From the NCBI GenBank assembly GCA_963835575.1, contig CAWIGG010000002.1, positions 1,024,001 to 1,088,000 of the forward strand: 64,000 bases of DNA, given 5' to 3'. Shown here piece by piece: positions 18,036 through 62,433 of the stretch; within the stretch, counting starts at the first letter, position 1, and the number at the start of each line of letters is the position of its first letter. The DNA is from an uncultured Spirochaetota bacterium. GTDB lineage: Bacteria > Spirochaetota > Brevinematia > Brevinematales > JAOACQ01. The notes below the pieces were generated by a model, which saw only the letters and a list, made by a program, of their open reading frames with translations, had not been told where the DNA came from and did no database searches. Position numbers and translations under genes: made by a program.

Positions 18036-18140
18036 TTGTAATAAACTCATAAAAAAATAAAGGATTTTGTAAGCTCAGGGTTTCTTTCTTCCCGTCTTCC
18101 TGTGAAATTATTTCCTGATAAAACGGAAAACCTCATAAAT

Positions 18141-27456: not shown

Positions 27457-27800
27457 AAAAACCCGGCAAGATGCTCCCTTTCATGATGAAAATGCTTGTA
27501 ACAAAACCGGCGACGGTTTTATATCCCTATACAAAGGTGGAAATGCCCCTGAATTTCCGCGGCAAACTCAAGTTCGACGCGTCGAAATGCATCGGCTGTA
27601 AGATGTGCATGCGGGACTGCCCCTCCGACGCCATCGTCATAGAGAAAACCGGCGAAAAGCAGTACGAGGCGGTCGTCTATCTTGACAAATGCATCTACTG
27701 CGGCCAGTGCGTCGACAGCTGCCCCAAAAAGGCGCTCTGGAACACCACGGAATACGAGTTGGCCAACTACGACCATGAACACCTGAAGGTGAAAATCTAA
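27453..27800 (+). CDS. NuoI/EchF-like 2[4Fe-4S] subunit
   Basis: CIGCKMCMRDCP and CIYCGQCVDSCP. Confidence 0.93.
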   Translation: MKKPGKMLPFMMKMLVTKPATVLYPYTKVEMPLNFRGKLKFDASKCIGCKMCMRDCPSDAIVIEKTGEKQYEAVVYLDKCIYCGQCVDSCPKKALWNTTEYELANYDHEHLKVKI

Positions 27801-27802
27801 TA

Positions 27803-28342
27803 ATGCGGCCGCTAAGAAACAAACCGCTCAAAAACCCTGAGGAATCACTGTTTCAAAACATTATCCATGGATGCCTGACAGGCACAAAAAAGTTCGCCGT
27901 AATGGGGATCGGCGCCCTCCTCAATTCCGACGACGGCGCGGGCGTCGTCATCGCGGAAAACCTTCTCAAACTTTTCAAAAACAAACCTTCCGAAAAATAC
28001 CGGATTTACAGCGGCTGTACCGCCCCGGAGAACTTTACCGGAGAGATCAAGCGCTTTTTTCCAGACCATCTGCTGGTCGTGGACGCGGCGGACTTCAAGG
28101 CAAAGCCCGGGAGCGTACAGATCATCGATATGGACAAGATAGGCGGGGTTTCATTCAGCTCGCACATGCTTCCCATTAAAATAATGATCGATTATTTGAA
28201 GAAGGAAATAGGGTGCAGGGTCACGCTTCTCGGCATTCAACCGGACAATATTACATACGGGGAGAAGATGACGCCGGCTGTCAGGAAGACGGTGAAGGAA
28301 CTGACGGAGATTCTGAAGGAAGAAATAGAAAGGATTATCTAA
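27803..28342 (+). CDS. hycI: Hydrogenase maturation endopeptidase, HycI-type
   Basis: GIG..L.SDDGAG, TAPEN, VDAAD, FSSHMLP, GIQP. Confidence 0.88.
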   Translation: MRPLRNKPLKNPEESLFQNIIHGCLTGTKKFAVMGIGALLNSDDGAGVVIAENLLKLFKNKPSEKYRIYSGCTAPENFTGEIKRFFPDHLLVVDAADFKAKPGSVQIIDMDKIGGVSFSSHMLPIKIMIDYLKKEIGCRVTLLGIQPDNITYGEKMTPAVRKTVKELTEILKEEIERII

Positions 28343-28537
28343 TCATATCAGAACTTATCAATAAACCATTCTTTATTAAAATACCAAATTCAGCAGGATT
28401 TAACTGGATTAACAGGAAGATTGTTTTAGTTAAGTCAAGAAAAAAACAATCAAAATATTTAAAAAACCTCAGTAGTTCGATATAATAAAGGCGGAAGAAA
28501 ATGGAGGTGTTGCTCGCGGAATATTTCCGCAGGGTTT

Positions 28538-29812
28538 CTAACCCACTTTTGCCACCCCGTTTTCTTCCATTTTCCTTATATTTTCAGACTCATAGTCCTT
28601 TAATATCCGAAATATCTTACGGACTAATGCTCTGGCAACCCTTTTATTCGCTTCGAGCCTGCTCATTCCATTTTTTATCAAATTCCTGTGCATGCCGGAA
28701 ATATGGTGGTCCGGATTCCAGTGAACAAAGTTCTTGGCCGCGTTCATAAAAGCGTTTTTCAAACGGCGGTTATAATCGTGAGTATGTTTCATCTTCTTTC
28801 TTTCACCCCTATTTTTCTTTCCGGTTTCATCTTCCACCATACCGAATCCCGCATATAACGCCAGGCTGTCCTCTTTAACAAAACGATTGATATGAATAAT
28901 CTCGGCTATCATCGTAGAGGCAGTGATCACGCCGATTCCTTTCAACCCATTGCCATTGGATTCGTCATAGGCTAAAACCCGGACAGCTTCCCTGGATTCA
29001 GCCAGATTATCCAAAATCTTCTTCATTTCTTCCTTATGGCCTTTCAAAAGAATAATATTTTCAGCAGATTGCCGGATCATCATGGAAATGGGGCCCGCTA
29101 CACCCAAGATTCTTTGGGCTATTACCTGTAAGCCGGCGATGGTCTTATCCCGGCCTCTATAAGAGCCTCCACCCATCAGCTCTTTCATTTTCTCCGCACT
29201 TAATCTCCTCCATTGGCTTAAATCGGGACAATTACACAGCAAATTCAGTACTCCTGCGCTATTCAAAACATTATGTCTGTTATCCGTCTCCATATTCTTG
29301 CCGCTTAAGAACAGGTAAACATCCGGGGAAGCCTCGCATAAAAGCTTCCACAGCCCGGATATTTCCTCTGTGATCCTGCCGCTTACACTTTCATATTTCC
29401 GGGTTATCGTCTGTAATTCGCTGTCAACAGGATAGACCCTTCTCCATTTTTCCAGAGAACCGTTCATTTCACGCTCTAAAGCCAAAAGAGCGGCGGCATG
29501 AGCATCCTTTTCGTTGTTCTTTCCCGCCGGGAGCTGGCTTTTCCTCTTTTGTTCAACATCCCTTGCTTTAAACGAGTAATAGGTCATCGATTCCTTACGA
29601 AGCACTTTCTCTAAGGGCTTACTCTGCCCGTTGCTTCCCTCGATGGCGATAATCGGGTCATTTTTCGACCGAGTCCATTCGATCAGATTATCAAGGCCGC
29701 TTGTGGTAACCGGAAAGGCTTTCCGTTCCGTTTTCCAGTCTTCCGCTTTGACATACATACACACATACTGTTGTGAATCGGGATCAATCCCGATAGCATC
29801 CCGGATTAGCAT
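28538..29812 (-). CDS. IS110-family recombinase/transposase
   Basis: GIDPD, IAIEG, KNNEKDA RuvC-like motifs; KGIGVITA..IAEI....RF.....LALYAG C-terminal Tnp domain. Confidence 0.9.
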   Translation of the reverse strand: MLIRDAIGIDPDSQQYVCMYVKAEDWKTERKAFPVTTSGLDNLIEWTRSKNDPIIAIEGSNGQSKPLEKVLRKESMTYYSFKARDVEQKRKSQLPAGKNNEKDAHAAALLALEREMNGSLEKWRRVYPVDSELQTITRKYESVSGRITEEISGLWKLLCEASPDVYLFLSGKNMETDNRHNVLNSAGVLNLLCNCPDLSQWRRLSAEKMKELMGGGSYRGRDKTIAGLQVIAQRILGVAGPISMMIRQSAENIILLKGHKEEMKKILDNLAESREAVRVLAYDESNGNGLKGIGVITASTMIAEIIHINRFVKEDSLALYAGFGMVEDETGKKNRGERKKMKHTHDYNRRLKNAFMNAAKNFVHWNPDHHISGMHRNLIKNGMSRLEANKRVARALVRKIFRILKDYESENIRKMEENGVAKVG

Positions 29813-29839
29813 TTTTTCCTCCAGCAGATTAAAATATCA

Positions 29840-30045
29840 GACCGTTCCATTTCGGCACCCTTGTAATGAGCGACAGGATTATTCAAGGGAATATCCTGGC
29901 AATTGTTTTAAGAGACCAAAACGGTCCTTGTGGAGTTGGCAATCTTCCTGTGTGCCTTGGTTTCAAACCAGAAGGCAGGCGGGTAGTGAGCAACAACTTC
30001 CACAAGGAGGTATTCTACTGAAGAATTATTTTTTGTAAACTTTTT
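29840..30045 (-). ncRNA. Candidate IS110 bridge RNA
   Basis: Two consecutive stem-loops with internal loops (29925-30008 and 29840-29926) containing segments that match the target flank and the element end. Confidence 0.65.
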
Positions 30046-30096
30046 CTCCAAAATATAGCTTACAAGGCAGGAAGAAGGGAAGGGGTACGGGAGTTA

Positions 30097-30122
30097 ACCA
30101 CAGATTGCACAGATTGCACAGA
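30097..30122 (+). repeat. 9-bp-period tandem repeat
   Basis: AACCACAGATTGCACAGATTGCACAGA; related inverted copy near 59300-59326. Confidence 0.75.
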
Positions 30123-30389
30123 AGGAAATCGGGGAATAGGGGCTACGCCCGGTTATACAAAGGAAATCAAATAAATGGAGTTCTTTATAATTTTATTAAA
30201 GTTTATTGAGTTGATATAATTAAATGGGGATTACACTGATTGAAGGTATTTTTCTGCTTTTGCGAGTAAAAAAACGCCTTTGCGAGAGACATTATTTCAC
30301 GCAAAGTCGCAGCCGTAGGACCGGCACAACAGGCATTGCGGCGGCGAGGAGCGCAACAGCTATGCCTTGTTATATGGCGTTTTACCTGC

Positions 30390-30785
30390 CTATCGGTATA
30401 ATTCGTAATAGTTTCTAGGGTTTATTATTTTTGTATTTTTATAATTTATTAAATCTAATAAATCTTTATCGCCGGTAAGGATTAAATCAGCTTCAATATT
30501 ATCAGCCAATAATAATACAGGATTATCTTTTATATCTCTGCTTTTTTTATACAATAATCCTTTTGGTTCAACAATTTCACTTATTTGCTTAAGGAATTTT
30601 AACAGACGTATGATTTCATCTTCCGGTACATGGAATTTATTCTCTAATTTGGTTTTCAATTCTGTCAAAATCCATTCGGATAAATAAATATCATCATTGT
30701 CAATACATAAATCAAAAACTTTTTTAGCAAGTCCATCTGTTAAAAAGGAAGATAGCAGCACATTTGTATCAATTACAATCTTCAA
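30390..30785 (-). CDS. PIN-domain toxin of a type II TA system
   Basis: IVIDTNVLLS, SRDIKDN, LILTGDKDLL. Confidence 0.9.
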   Translation of the reverse strand: MKIVIDTNVLLSSFLTDGLAKKVFDLCIDNDDIYLSEWILTELKTKLENKFHVPEDEIIRLLKFLKQISEIVEPKGLLYKKSRDIKDNPVLLLADNIEADLILTGDKDLLDLINYKNTKIINPRNYYELYR

Positions 30786-31006
30786 GATAGTTCTTTATCA
30801 TTGTAAATATCTTCATCAGAATAGAAACCTGCTTTTTCAGCATAAGGAACTAAGCTATCCCTGATATTATAAAATTCATCATGTAAAAGATACTTATCAA
30901 GAGCTTTATTTATTATTTCGCTTTTAGTCAAGTGTTTTTTCCTGGAAATTGATTCCAGTTTTTTTTTGAGAATTGGATTAATACTTACTGTTAATATCTG
31001 TCTCAT
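30782..31006 (-). CDS. RHH/CopG-family antitoxin
   Basis: ILTVSI...L..I.......KSEIINKAL; 4-nt overlap with the toxin gene. Confidence 0.85.
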   Translation of the reverse strand: MRQILTVSINPILKKKLESISRKKHLTKSEIINKALDKYLLHDEFYNIRDSLVPYAEKAGFYSDEDIYNDKELS

Positions 31007-31024
31007 ATAGAACTCCTTCCTAAC

Positions 31025-31061
31025 TGTATTACAGTATAATACAAATTATAATTGAAGTCAA
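31025..31061 (-). promoter_or_regulatory. TA promoter with palindromic operator
   Basis: Minus strand TTGACT-N17-TATACT; TGTATTA-N5-TAATACA (31025-31043) overlaps the -10 and start site. Confidence 0.7.
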
Positions 31062-31684
31062 TTGAATTTTAAAAAGTCAGGCAGGGAGGCGAAAAGTCAT
31101 ATGTGAAGCCCGCGGGACTTAGAGCTTTGCTTGGTTCGACAAGCACATCACATCGCTTGTCGAACGGGTTTGGTGAGCCCTGCCGTTGTAAATAGATTTT
31201 TTTCACAGGGAGACGGGAAGATATTTTGTTCAGAGTTGAGTTATAGGTTAAAAACAAATCTATTTTCTTCCCGCTTCTTGTCTAAATAAACCACTGAGAG
31301 CACCCTTCGATGAACTCAGGGTAAACTCCGGACACGGAGATTTCTGTATTTACAAGACTTTGTAATTAAACATAAGCGTATTTTAATACCCGATTGTTTA
31401 CAAGGATGATGCGGATAACACGGATTTTCGCGGATCAGATGATTTCTTCCGGTATCATAAAGCTCACAAACAATAACAACATATCAGACGACATTTTAAT
31501 TATAAAAATTCCAGTCTTGACAGTAAAGTATTGCTTTATTAAGATGAATATAAGAAACTTCGTGTATTTTATAAAAAATGAAATGCGTTTATATGGATAT
31601 AAGTGCACGCTCGCCCTCTTTTGCCGTCCGGCAGGTTTAGTGACCCACCCCCCTGACTACCTTCAGTATAGCCTTTTCAGATTT

Positions 31685-32446
31685 TCAGGTCAAAGATTTT
31701 AACTCATTTTTCTTGATAAAATTATTTAACCTGAAACTTTTACCTTCAATAACTATTTTAACCGAACCATCTATCAATCGGTCCATAACAGCGCTGCCGA
31801 TCAATGGATTGGAGAAAACGGAAGGCCATTCCGAAAGATCCCGGTTGCTTGTTATGATAGTCGATGCCTTTGTATAACGGCCATAGATTATTTCATAAAG
31901 GTCATCCTGCTGCTGCTGGTTCAAATCCTGGAGCCCGAAGTCATCCAGTATTAGAAGTTCGATTTTACAGATGTTTTTCAACTTTAAGATGTGACTTCCA
32001 TTTCCTCTGGCCGCGTTAAGGGAGCGCAGGAGAAGAACCGTGTTCTTAAAGACCACCTCGTAACCTCTCCGTATGGCCTCATGCCCGATAGACTGAGCGA
32101 GATGCGTTTTACCTACCCCGGAAGGGCCTAAAATGAATATGTTTTCTTTCTTTTTCAGGAAGTGGCAGGTAGAAAGTTCCTTTATTACAGATTCATTTAC
32201 CTGTGAGTTGAAATTGAAGTCGAAACTTTCCAATGTTTTATCATATTCAAGGCTGCTCTTTTTCAACCTGATGTTCAACATATGCTGGTCTCTGCAATCA
32301 GATTCTTCAAGCAGTAAATTGAGTAGAAAATCCGTATAGGACATCTTCTCATTCTGGGCCTTCTGGAGATGATAATCTAAATTTTCCAACATACCGGAAA
32401 GCTTCAAGCGTTTAAGCTGGGGTGTCAATTGTGTCCTGTCGTCCAT
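31685..32446 (-). CDS. istB: IS21 helper ATPase IstB
   Basis: GPSGVGKT Walker A, LLILDD Walker B, IITSN, DRL. Confidence 0.95.
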   Translation of the reverse strand: MDDRTQLTPQLKRLKLSGMLENLDYHLQKAQNEKMSYTDFLLNLLLEESDCRDQHMLNIRLKKSSLEYDKTLESFDFNFNSQVNESVIKELSTCHFLKKKENIFILGPSGVGKTHLAQSIGHEAIRRGYEVVFKNTVLLLRSLNAARGNGSHILKLKNICKIELLILDDFGLQDLNQQQQDDLYEIIYGRYTKASTIITSNRDLSEWPSVFSNPLIGSAVMDRLIDGSVKIVIEGKSFRLNNFIKKNELKSLT

Positions 32447-32454
32447 GTATCCTC

Positions 32455-33997
32455 CTATAATTTGAAGTAACCGTTATCCCTGGCATACTTGAACGGAAGA
32501 TAGGTTTTAGGTGAAGGATCAACATAGGCAGGGTCCTTCCGGTCAAGTTCCTTAATACAAAATACTTTTTACGCTCGAATAGCTCGGAGTATCATAGAAA
32601 ATTGCCCTCCTGCAGGCCGCTTCTACACGTTCTTTTGGATATTTCTTTGAAAGGAACAGAACAGCCCTTGCAGAGCGGAACCCGTCTATCTGCCTATGAG
32701 AAAGTATTTTCTCAACAACTTCAAGAGTCGATTGCCCTATGCTTTGCGCCCAGGTAAACAGCGTTGATGTTAAATATTCTTCTTTATACGGCGGAGCGTG
32801 AAGAGGGTTGCGCATATATTCCCATTTTCTTTTGGCCCTTTCATGAACGGCTATCAATTCATAATCAGAATATACCTTCACAGACTTTGAATCGGCACAA
32901 ACCATTACTTCCTGTCCGATATACTTGTATGGAACGCTATATTGCGAATTATCATATTGAATCATCCATTCAGGCCGCACAACGCAGGTTTTCCAGCTTA
33001 TCACATCCCAATCATCTAAAGGCAGCCTTGTGAGGGTCTTTAATTCTTCGATGAACAGTTCGAATGGTGATCTGCCAACACCATGGATAATTCTGATATC
33101 TGCCGTGTCCTCATCCCATTTTTTAAGGGATTCTTCCAGATCGATCGATAAGGGGATTTGATGGCCTTTCTGTATTTGTTTTTCTGTGAAGTATGGCCAG
33201 AAATTTCTTTTGATATACTTGATATCATTCTCAACGCCGCCCTTGTGTTCAGGTTTCCCGGGAAGGCAGGGACTGATGAGGAAATCGTAATGTTTGGCCA
33301 GTTCCTGATAACTTCGATTGATAACAGGGTCATAAAAGGCGGCTTTTACAACGGCTGATTTGAGATTGTCTGGAACAACCTTCCTGGGTATTCCCCCAAA
33401 GGGATGAAAAGCATGTATATGGCACAGGAAAAACGTTTCTTTTTTCTGATTATAGACTGCCTCACGATATGCTTTCCGTGACTTTCTAAGCCTTCCGGAA
33501 AACACCCAGGCTTTCCTGTTTCTGCACTCAAGGGGGTCATAAGTAAGTCCGAGATATCCGAAATCCACTTCCATAACGCCGTCTTCAAGCGGCCGGATCA
33601 TTACGCTTGGTTTAATTTCTGGGAATTTCTTCTGTATATATCGGCGTACAGTGGTCTCCGAGATATTTGAGCAATCTGAATATTCACTTATCAGTTTGTG
33701 AATAACCACAAAACTTTTACCATCTTTCTTGTATTGTTGAAGTTTGTCAACATATCTATCCAGAATATGGGATTTTTTTGTGCTGTTTTCCGTCTCATTA
33801 TATGCAAGGTCCATGTCTTTCTCAGAAGGTAAGCCGGAAGACGCTGAAAGCCATCCCTTTTTATCTCCTATATTCTTTATCTTTCTTATGACTTCCCGGT
33901 GTGTCCCGGTCTCTTTAAAGATATTCCTTATAGATTCGCCTTTTTTTAACCGGATTAATATTTCGATTAGCTGTGTCATGGTTTTTACCCTCGCCAT
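32455..33997 (-). pseudogene. istA: IS21 transposase IstA, frameshifted near the C-terminus
   Basis: EVDFG, VPDNLKSAV, KGGVE DDE motifs; ORF stops at 32552 but a shifted frame continues IKELDR...FKYARDNGYFKL to 32455. Confidence 0.8.
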
Positions 33998-59124: not shown

Positions 59125-59378
59125 CTTCCCGCCTTCCTATCTTCCTGTTAATTTTATCCCAAATCCTGTTAATCCTGTTCAATCCTGAATATCCTGCTGA
59201 ATTGGGGTCTATGTATCCGCCTTAATTATATAAATCGGGATGCATTTATTAAACATATTCTGTCCACCGGCGTAGCCCGCAAACTTTTCCCCAATCCCAT
59301 CTGTGTCATCTGTGAAATCTGTGGTTCCTTTCCGTGTCCAACCTTCGATTCGCGTCGATTCGCGTGCATTCGCGGGTT
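59125..59378 (-). repeat. Cluster of 8-10-bp-period tandem repeats
   Basis: CTTCCCGCCTTCCTATCTTCCTGTTA; AATCCTG x3-4; ATCTGTG x3; ATTCGCG x3. Confidence 0.75.
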
Positions 59379-60758: not shown

Positions 60759-62433
60759 TTGCCTGTCGGTTTTTATAACATGCTTCATGGACATACGGCA
60801 GGGTTCCCGTTAAAATAAAACGGGAGAAAAAGATGGCAAGATTTGAAAAGAACAGCCTGGAGCAGGGTGAGTTCCTCGCGATCAATATAGGCGAGCAGTT
60901 TGATGAGAATTCCAGAGAATTTATACTAAAAGAATTCATCAAAAACCGTATTAAACTGGAGGATTTCGCGGCTTACTATAAGAACGACCATAGAGGCAGA
61001 GAGATTAAAAATCCTCGGGATGTGATCTGTGCGGTACTCTACGGTTACATTACGGGAAATCGTATCAGCCGAAAGATAGAAGATTTGCTGAAAAAACACA
61101 TTGGGTTTATGTATGTTTCAAACCGGCTGAAAATTGACCATTCGGTAATTTGCGAGTTCAAGGTACTTTTTCAGGAAAAGATCGAGGAGTTGTTCAGCCA
61201 GCTTTTATATATACTCAACGAAATGGGGTCTATAGATTGGGACATGGTAGTGGGTGACGGCACAAAGATCAAGGCCTACGCGAGTAAGAATAAGAATGTG
61301 GGAAAGAAACATACCCGGAAGCTGATGGACACTTACCAGAAGATGGCGGAAAAGATTGTGAAACAAGACCTGGAACTGGAAGAATCTTACCGGGAAGGCA
61401 AGCTGGAGCAGCCTTATTACGAAGCGGAGAAGAAGCGGGTATCAAGGCGGAAAAAGATTTACGATAGTGTTTTGAACCAAATCGATGAATACAAAAAACA
61501 GGTAGAGAGAGGGGAAAAGACAGACGAAGAATTCACCAACCTGACTGATCCCGAAAGCAAGCTGATGTCTGGAAATCCGCATAGTGTGTTTATACAGGGA
61601 TATAATTCGGCGATGATGGTCAGTAATAATGATGTGATTATAGATTTTGAAGCAATCACAACACCGGAAAAACAGCATACGGAAGAAATGGTAAAGAGGG
61701 TGGAACAGAAAAAAGCGGAATTAAAAGTTGATAAGGCTAGCAAATACCTTTTTGATTCGGGTTTTCAGGACATGGAAGAGACAATCCGGATGGTGGAGGA
61801 AGGAAAAGACCTTTATGTGGATACGAAAGAGCGGGATTTCAGTGATAAATCACAGAAGCGAAGAGACTTTAAACTGGAAAAGATTGATGACGAATATATC
61901 CTGGGATGCCGGGGCGGCCGTAAGGAAAATGGGTATTTAGATCGAAATAACCAAAGATATACATTTTTGTATTCACGGAAGGGCTGTGAAAGATGTCCAT
62001 TTTTCAGTGAGTGTTATAAAAACATCAAACCGAAAACACAGCAAAAGACAGTAATTTTCAGTGAGTTTGAATTGAATAATCGGTCTAAGATTGATGCTTA
62101 TTTAACAAAACTTTACAGCGAAGAAGGGCAAAAGATATACAACCGCAGGATAGGTAAAGAACACGTATTTTCAAACATCAAAACACAGAAGGGTTATGTT
62201 CAGACAGTTTACAGAGGTCAACGGAAAGTGAATTTGGAGCTATGCTGGGTATCCCTTGCGCATAATTTTATGAAATATGCCCAATATTTGAGAAAATAGA
62301 GAGGATTTTGTATAGTCTGAGTATCGATTATTCGAAATTTATTATTAAAATCAGCTAAGCTGACAAAATTTTTATTTGCCCGCTTATTGTAAGGGGCTGG
62401 TTTGACTCCGAAAATGAAATAACCGACAGGCAA
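60759..62433 (+). mobile_element. IS1182-like insertion sequence
   Basis: 13-bp IRs TTGCCTGTCGGTT and AACCGACAGGCAA; CATA target duplication at 60755-60758 and 62434-62437. Confidence 0.92.
60833..62299 (+). CDS. IS1182-like transposase
   Basis: SRKIE, DHSVI, DGTKIKAYAS, TDPES, GYN, DSGF, CxxCP, EHVFSNIK. Confidence 0.88.
   Translation: MARFEKNSLEQGEFLAINIGEQFDENSREFILKEFIKNRIKLEDFAAYYKNDHRGREIKNPRDVICAVLYGYITGNRISRKIEDLLKKHIGFMYVSNRLKIDHSVICEFKVLFQEKIEELFSQLLYILNEMGSIDWDMVVGDGTKIKAYASKNKNVGKKHTRKLMDTYQKMAEKIVKQDLELEESYREGKLEQPYYEAEKKRVSRRKKIYDSVLNQIDEYKKQVERGEKTDEEFTNLTDPESKLMSGNPHSVFIQGYNSAMMVSNNDVIIDFEAITTPEKQHTEEMVKRVEQKKAELKVDKASKYLFDSGFQDMEETIRMVEEGKDLYVDTKERDFSDKSQKRRDFKLEKIDDEYILGCRGGRKENGYLDRNNQRYTFLYSRKGCERCPFFSECYKNIKPKTQQKTVIFSEFELNNRSKIDAYLTKLYSEEGQKIYNRRIGKEHVFSNIKTQKGYVQTVYRGQRKVNLELCWVSLAHNFMKYAQYLRK

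Follow-up and report, generated by a model that had tools for sequence, protein, structure and literature searches.

The window (the whole stretch of 64,000 nucleotides that was analysed) carries on its minus strand an IS110-type element which, judged from its sequence, is very probably an autonomous, recently active insertion sequence working like IS621, and the feature that appears actually to set it apart is an active site with Asn and Thr where IS621 has D102 and S241. A previous sequence-only reading had described a divergent recombinase of the IS110 type whose bridge RNA has two loops and targets a dispersed repeat; this description is strongly supported by the location of 6/6 copies in the repeat and by the covariation of guides and flanks among orthologs, and the core, the ends and several guide assignments of that reading are corrected here.

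Ends, copies and target repeat of the element

The element, its boundaries and the members of its target family in the window are the following.

28418..30066, minus strand: whole IS110-type element of 1649 bp, both CT cores included (6 genomic copies; ortholog ends agree)
30065..30074, minus strand: left target half CTTCCTGC (30074-30067) plus left CT core (30066-30065), from direct reading and six-copy comparison
28412..28419, minus strand: right CT core (28419-28418) plus right target half TCCTGT (28417-28412), from direct reading and six-copy comparison
18088..18103, plus strand: target site without insertion, identical to the consensus that the six occupied sites give (genome C2:1042088)
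59125..59148, plus strand: three-unit member of the target repeat family with two overlapping 1-mismatch sites, from the genome repeat search
31205..31220, minus strand: member of the target repeat family with 1 mismatch (genome C2:1055220)

Six copies, with 0-4 mutual differences, were found in the genome (G000), and their outer flanks are all different beyond the target. In gene orientation, all six read CTTCCYGY-CT-TGTAAGC at the left end and AAAACAAT-CT-TCCTGT at the right end, having CT at both boundaries in 6/6 copies, while TGTAAG and AAAACAAT are retained at the element ends of orthologs whose flanks are unrelated. Because the ends are shared by the six copies and by these orthologs, the core is CT and the element spans 28418-30066, in place of the TT core and the 28410..30075 limits assigned before. 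By direct reading there are no terminal inverted repeats, the two ends not being inverted copies of each other. The non-coding left end measures 254 nt from core to start codon, with the guides upstream of the gene, and the right end has 118 nt without a sub-terminal repeat.

The insertion site of all six copies is an octamer-periodic repeat, CTTCCYGY-CT-TCCTGT, so that the proposed comparison of other copies and their insertion sites returned the same ends and the same repeat in 6/6. Empty copies of this corrected consensus are present in the genome as 18 exact sites (0.04 expected), 57 at ≤1 mismatch and 122 at ≤2. The consensus corresponds to the last two units of short octamer arrays, and 9 pairs of array ends face outward, 93-419 bases apart, as inverted pairs that could form hairpins. 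The three relatives of the repeat named by the sequence-only reading do exist (18088, 31205-31220 and 59125/59133). Its 26-nt empty site does match 59125-59150 at 22/26, but contains 8 element-end letters, and the match arises because the repeat is 8-periodic; no genomic match to the 26-mer was obtained with up to 3 mismatches and one with 4, compared with 17 at 1 mismatch for the corrected 16-mer. The 22/26 match is the point in favor of the earlier version taken whole (TT core, 26-nt empty site, 11-nt right guide, offset left guide and no right donor guide), which is nevertheless extremely improbable, given that the five other copies and the orthologs keep TGTAAG and AAAACAAT as ends, that six flank pairs refute it, and that the absence of close matches to the 26-mer, the end of guide covariation at target position 14 and the presence of the donor guide TTACAAG (see below) all run against it. 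The CT-bounded element is therefore the one described in what follows.

Other occurrences were also recorded. A 3' fragment of a sister element, 86% identical and with the same right end, lies at C2:1329628-1330118 of G000, and its right flank CT-GTGGC is a different target. A genome of the same family has an ortholog of the element; the element search matched 5/401 genomes of the phylum, and a scan of a genome collection gave 1 locus. A 98.7% identical copy occurs in the contigs of one DNA run of another study, with target-type repeat letters at its left end and other right flanks. Joined element ends (circle junctions) were found neither in G000 nor in the contigs of 4 DNA sequencing runs, and among the sequencing runs listed as carrying the element none is an RNA run. 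The sequence of ortholog L030 ends within a junction, 7 bases beyond the core. Ortholog L049 was considered as a circle junction and rejected, since non-element DNA begins after 7 bases; it sits in a donor-like site (L049:1581-1600) mimicking the donor right half for 7 bases, as half-match recombination would give.

Two of the six copies are interrupted at the same base, between bridge RNA and ribosome-binding site (about window 29822-29825), by a 1678-bp element with terminal inverted repeats (C2:1643158-1644835 and C5:162932-164609). This element is IS1182-like (213 bits, below the 270 cut-off) and has 24 full-length genome copies, one of them at window 60759-62433. The SNP patterns of the two interrupted copies are not the same, pointing to two separate insertions at the base of the long RNA-enclosing stem. 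The neighborhood in the window also includes a hydrogenase cluster upstream, which ends with hycI at 28342. Next to the element are a putative toxin gene of a PIN-family toxin-antitoxin system (TIGR00305; 30390-30785, minus strand), which lies amid word repeats, and an IS21 istA/istB pair (31685-33997, minus strand).

Bridge RNA and covariation of its guides

The upstream left end, in which the sequence-only reading saw two stem-loops, folds far better than chance (z -5.2; 0/200 shuffles as good) and corresponds to a single two-loop unit with no tandem guide array. Its parts, all on the minus strand, are listed below.

29926..30007, minus strand: target-binding stem-loop of the bridge RNA, from the fold; outer helix 99% paired in 48 orthologs, 4/15 pairs with two-sided change
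29977..29986, minus strand: left target guide CTACCCGCCT, target positions 0-9 with the core included, in the canonical register ending on the core
29944..29950, minus strand: right target guide CAGGAAG, core plus 5, from six sites and covariation
29941..29943, minus strand: handshake segment ATT, complementary to the donor bases directly before the core
29840..29925, minus strand: donor-binding stem-loop of the bridge RNA, from the fold; helices 94% and 98% paired (48 orthologs)
29902..29910, minus strand: left donor guide TAAAACAAT, identical to the element right end 28428-28420
29860..29866, minus strand: right donor guide TTACAAG, complementary to core plus left end (CTTGTAA)
29859, minus strand: donor-loop handshake base G, directly following the right donor guide

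This two-loop structure has 94.7% of cells paired in 48 aligned orthologs, 13/38 pairs having two-sided change, against 29-55% in slid controls, and its shuffle control is inflated by the relatedness of the orthologs. The inner hairpin of loop 1 reaches ≤ -3 kcal/mol in 44/48 orthologs and in 25% of shuffles. The donor-stem pairing given by RNAalifold is a slid register and was set aside, the register named here being counted separately. An Rfam search over 27500-31500 gave one chance match only (E 0.55).

The guide strings quoted by the sequence-only reading stand at the quoted positions, and their roles are partly reassigned. The offset left guide CCTGCCTT has 5/8 bases paired in the inner stem of loop 1 (MFE fold) and matches the flank of this copy only; the actual guide is CTACCCGCCT, at 29986-29977. 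The string ACAGGAAGATT (29951-29941) pairs with the target flank and core as claimed, except for its last 3 bases, which pair with the element's own end. Since covariation ends at target position 14, what was taken as an 11-nt right target guide is a 7-8-nt guide plus handshake bases, the extra ATT being the handshake segment; the A at 29951 also fits target position 15 here, a position without covariation in the clade. The right donor guide that had been missed is TTACAAG, at 29866-29860.

For the covariation analysis, 91 loci were examined, 65 of them with a right guide and at least 8 flank bases; L030 and L049 were excluded for their donor-like flank. The right-guide set, with own-genome copies and one duplicate dropped and one locus kept per guide, comprises 44 guides, and the left set comprises 41 guides from 56 loci. 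The right guide agrees with the flank at positions 10-14 in 40, 40, 39, 38 and 37 of the 44 (shuffled mean 11-15, maximum 23-26), and at positions 15-17 in 12, 10 and 10, which is chance level, and thus a clade-wide right target guide of 8 nt or more was rejected. The left guide agrees at positions 0-7 in 26, 18, 23, 27, 29, 34, 28 and 32 of the 41 (shuffled 10-14), counting as misses the left guides of L002, L061, L064 and L066, which look mis-registered by the rule, and L006, whose left end is probably mis-called. The totals are 226 matches against 91 ± 9 shuffled for the right guide and 229 against 101 for the left, bearing out the proposed check of guide-target covariation, with the significance overstated by the shuffles because the ortholog loci are related.

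In this genome, the occupied sites are the repeat variants nearest to the left guide, 6/6 being within 2 mismatches compared with 21/60 empty sites (Fisher p 0.003). The left guide is mismatched at position 2 in 6/6 insertion sites and at position 7 in 4/6, and no perfect match to its target was found in the genome. Targeting through recognition of the repeat by the protein, the loop matches being incidental, would be compatible with a left guide imperfect at every site here and with the 9 inverted repeat pairs as possible hairpins; such targeting is highly improbable, because 44 right guides track 44 flanks at the level given above and the flanks of the orthologs are unrelated to this repeat. 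The preferred reading remains targeting by the bridge RNA. As separate observations, L035 and L081 have guide and right flank in common and a different left flank, and the orthologs L001/L085 and L086, from related genomes, carry guides directed at words of the CTCTGTG/CTCCGTG type, which are another repeat family of the same style, so that retargeting from one word-array repeat to another seems to occur in this lineage.

The donor varies hardly at all within the clade; its positions 3-5 show 2 compensated changes (L064 and L086) and 2 uncompensated ones (L042 and L061), and the left donor guide has no match to donor positions 6-7 in most orthologs. These two positions are paired by the target-loop handshake in 58/63 junction/guide pairs, including 3 compensatory ATT/AAT cases. 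The covariation of the donor-loop handshake is weak (21/49 against 15.8, p 0.04), with T facing A in 7/7.

Like IS621 and ISCro4/IS622 (PMC11208160, PMC11208158, bioRxiv 2025.05.14.653916), the element has an upstream left-end RNA, two guide loops, a CT core and a predicted junction promoter, inserts into a dispersed host repeat and has the same domain order and fold, and its target of 14 bases is like that of IS622 (bioRxiv 2025.05.14.653916). In IS621, the handshake involves A81/U82 against donor dA6/dT7 and G166 against target C7 (PMC11208158), and the element similarly has an A/U handshake against donor A6/T7 and a G at the donor loop. It differs from the IS621 described there in its natural right target guide of 7 nt instead of 4 paired, in a contiguous instead of discontinuous right donor guide, and in a second -35-like box inside the left end. 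By extension from IS621, transcription of the left end would yield a bridge RNA of about 170 nt, to which a recombinase tetramer would bind; of its two loops, the first would pair with the 14-15-bp target, the left guide with the bottom strand and the 7-nt right guide with the top strand, and the second loop would pair with the joined element ends, with the handshake bases favoring strand exchange.

Recombinase and its active site

The reading of the open reading frame as an IS110-type recombinase holds, and the relevant features are as follows.

28538..29812, minus strand: recombinase of 424 aa with RuvC-like domain, coiled coil with a long variable insert, and Tnp domain (Pfam, model)
29513..29515, minus strand: codon of Asn100, which in the profile alignment to 8wt6 and 9t56 stands at the position of D102 of IS621, the third residue of DEDD
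28823..28825, minus strand: codon of Thr330, at the position of the IS621 catalytic S241, in an xxTG motif with G331 next (profile alignment)

The single 424-aa protein matches PF01548 (49.8 bits) and PF02371 (49.3 bits), both above curated cut-offs, and the IS110 family NF033542 of NCBIfam at 102 bits, below the cut-off of 140. Its structure model has a pLDDT of 90, the best fold matches being IS621 and ISCro4, with about 15% identity in structural alignment. The profile alignment sets nKnNekDA against IS621 NKTDTVDA and rehstG against RRYESG, which places N100 at D102 and T330 at S241; a register of KxDxxDA three residues off, given by single-sequence phmmer, was ruled out by the profile alignment and 32 outgroup proteins. 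The tetrad therefore reads D10, E58, N100 and D103 instead of DEDD, and T330-G331 stands in place of the conserved catalytic SG. As it departs from the literal DEDD and serine, with Asn clade-wide, the protein is a variant and not a plain member of the IS110 group.

Among the best 120 of 215 homologs, D10, E58 and N100 are found in 120/120 and D103 in 119/120, and residue 330 is Thr in 116 and Ser in 4. A quick tree with midpoint root covers 69 proteins, of which 60 came from the representatives search and have at least 370 aa and 9 are further chosen homologs; in it, the 37 proteins scoring at least 300 bits form one side of a long branch (SH-aLRT 100). These 37 representatives have Asn in 37/37, with Thr in 33 and Ser in 4 scattered members, and the 32 remaining proteins have Asp at the third position in 32/32, with Ser in 25 and Thr in 7. 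Those seven (P0212, P0244, P0245, P0249, P0252, P0255 and P0260), having Thr with a normal DEDD, fall outside the DEND clade and group together with weak support. At the 65 loci with a readable right junction, including 3 own copies and 1 duplicate, 58 are Asn/Thr and 7 Asn/Ser. All four ACN codons are used at the Thr330 position and the exceptions are AGC/AGT Ser, as would be expected were a hydroxyl the selected property. Compared with the 80%-identical ortholog L003, dN is 0.115 and dS 2.18, and a dN/dS of about 0.05 corresponds to purifying selection.

In IS621, D11, E60 and D105 bind metal, and D102 docks the serine loop by a hydrogen bond to G242 without binding metal; mutation of D102 or S241 (the named mutants are alanines) abolished recombination (PMC11208158). 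In a scan of IS622, mutations of the catalytic residues as a group were highly depleted (bioRxiv 2025.05.14.653916). Here it is proposed that D10, E58 and D103 would hold the metal in this clade, that Thr330 would be the nucleophile, forming a 5'-phosphothreonine link, and that Asn100 would take the loop-docking role of D102, presumably supplying that hydrogen bond; these roles of Thr330 and Asn100 are likely.

The same essentiality of D102 and S241 in IS621 (PMC11208158), together with the presence in G000 of four other IS110-family loci, two of which are intact DEDD/SG copies, would fit a catalytically dead or scaffold Asn/Thr protein, the element being moved in trans, via this bridge RNA, by a canonical DEDD/Ser IS110 recombinase of the host. 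This is very unlikely, given the near-invariance of D10, E58 and D103 in the homologs, a hydroxyl position that is only ever T or S, and the low dN/dS; moreover, the DEND clade has conserved ends and RNA of its own and extends over many clusters at 50% identity, as would not be expected of a dead protein, and the two intact DEDD/SG copies have their own ends and flanks. An active Asn/Thr recombinase is thus retained as the preferred reading. The other IS110-family genes are the near-identical DEDD/SG pair at C2:475443 and C5:7117, with flanks of CACAGAG/CACGGAG-type words, and those at C2:1620128 and C2:1856108, comprising a copy whose RuvC part contains a stop and a gene present once.

Threonine at the serine motif is already on record in the wider family, since IS1111 transposases (the seekRNA elements) have SG or TG at the C-terminal motif, with SG conserved in the IS110 group (PMC11187229). 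However, in IS1111 elements the non-coding region lies downstream, sub-terminal inverted repeats are present and the transposases have 330-350 aa (PMC11187229), whereas here the RNA is upstream, such repeats are absent and the protein has 424 aa. In its length and the position of its insert, the protein is like the long IS110-subgroup transposases (395-455 aa, with a long variable region; PMC11187229), and the spacing from the D102 to the S241 position is 222-223 residues in most homologs of the element, compared with 139 in IS621. The nearest outgroup proteins, of about 400 aa, have the KxDxxDA and YxG-x7-SG frame in common with the element and differ from its clade in the Asp or Asn at the third position, as counted above. 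The Tnp/Nop-like domain is shared with TIGR-Tas (NF052498; PDB 9mty), for which the match is 32.5 bits with a cut-off of 100, and in contrast to TIGR-Tas the element has IS ends, several copies and no upstream tandem guide array. In the literature searched, no account was found of a DEND tetrad or of a Thr-bearing IS110-group clade, although supplementary ortholog and residue tables may include such proteins; Asn for D102 across the whole lineage, with mostly Thr for S241, is thus apparently an unrecorded catalytic signature.

Promoter-like sites and meaning for the family

Three promoter features were located on the minus strand.

28433..28438, minus strand: -35 box TTGACT of the predicted circle-junction promoter; TTGA at this place in 38/38 distinct junctions
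30057..30062, minus strand: -10 box TAAGCT of the predicted circle-junction promoter, with a 17-nt spacer after end joining; TA...T in 37/38 junctions
30012..30039, minus strand: putative internal promoter-like site TTTACA-N16-TAGAAT, directly before the bridge RNA; 10/12 consensus

The junction promoter read earlier as TTGACT-N16-TATTTT becomes TTGACT-N17-TAAGCT with the corrected ends, and a sigma-70-like TTGA..-N17-TA...T arrangement across the joined ends is seen, at the level of sequence, in 37/38 distinct junctions, as expected for IS110. For the internal site, 49 distinct ortholog upstream segments were compared: the -35 begins with TTG in 45 and the -10 with TA in 40, and a score of at least 8/12 is reached in 29/49 segments against 9.6% of shuffles. 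Against a promoter are the final T of the -10 box, present in only 2/49 segments, and the 7 sites given by the scanner in this region, where 3.2 are expected by chance. The balance tips slightly towards a working internal promoter.

A DnaA-box-like motif, TGTGGATAA, was found in 31/44 ortholog left ends (0.7 expected), directly upstream of the internal -35 and often doubled (e.g., in L002, L008 and L082, 44-56 bases before the target-loop stem); the matching was to the DnaA-box consensus. The short left ends of the window element and of L003 are without the motif. Immediately ahead of the motif, the sequence looks like a degraded copy of the donor junction. No account of DnaA boxes in IS110 ends was found in the literature searched. 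Control by DnaA in the box-bearing relatives has a little short of an even chance. The wider proposal, of a widespread bridge-recombinase lineage built on DEND and a Thr nucleophile, with its RNA made from the internal promoter and mostly gated by the adjacent DnaA box, is tentative and rather unlikely as a whole. If true, the internal promoter and DnaA gating would tie excision to the host replication initiator, and not to read-through or prior circle formation. For other IS110s, copy-out has been argued (bioRxiv 2025.10.25.684509, bioRxiv 2026.08.31.748434), and studies of IS621 are at odds over excision by cutting or by copying.

The novelty of the element is tempered by the Thr already noted at the motif of IS1111 and by the wide mining of the class at present, with bridge-RNA elements now common (32,190 predicted; bioRxiv 2026.10.21.760802). 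Bridge recombinases are under development as genome-writing tools, and a published ortholog screen focused on the IS621-like clade (bioRxiv 2025.05.14.653916). The present lineage is distant; its RNA is cleanly readable, its natural right guide has 7 nt, and at least 44 settings of that guide occur in nature, so that with its boundaries solved it is directly testable. The natural Asn/Asp and Thr/Ser states, including the reversals to Ser within the clade, may serve to test the role of D102 and Thr as carrier of the covalent link to DNA. In IS621, the first RNA of the integrated element has been explained by weak read-through (PMC13626964), and a conserved internal promoter would bear on the source of this first RNA.
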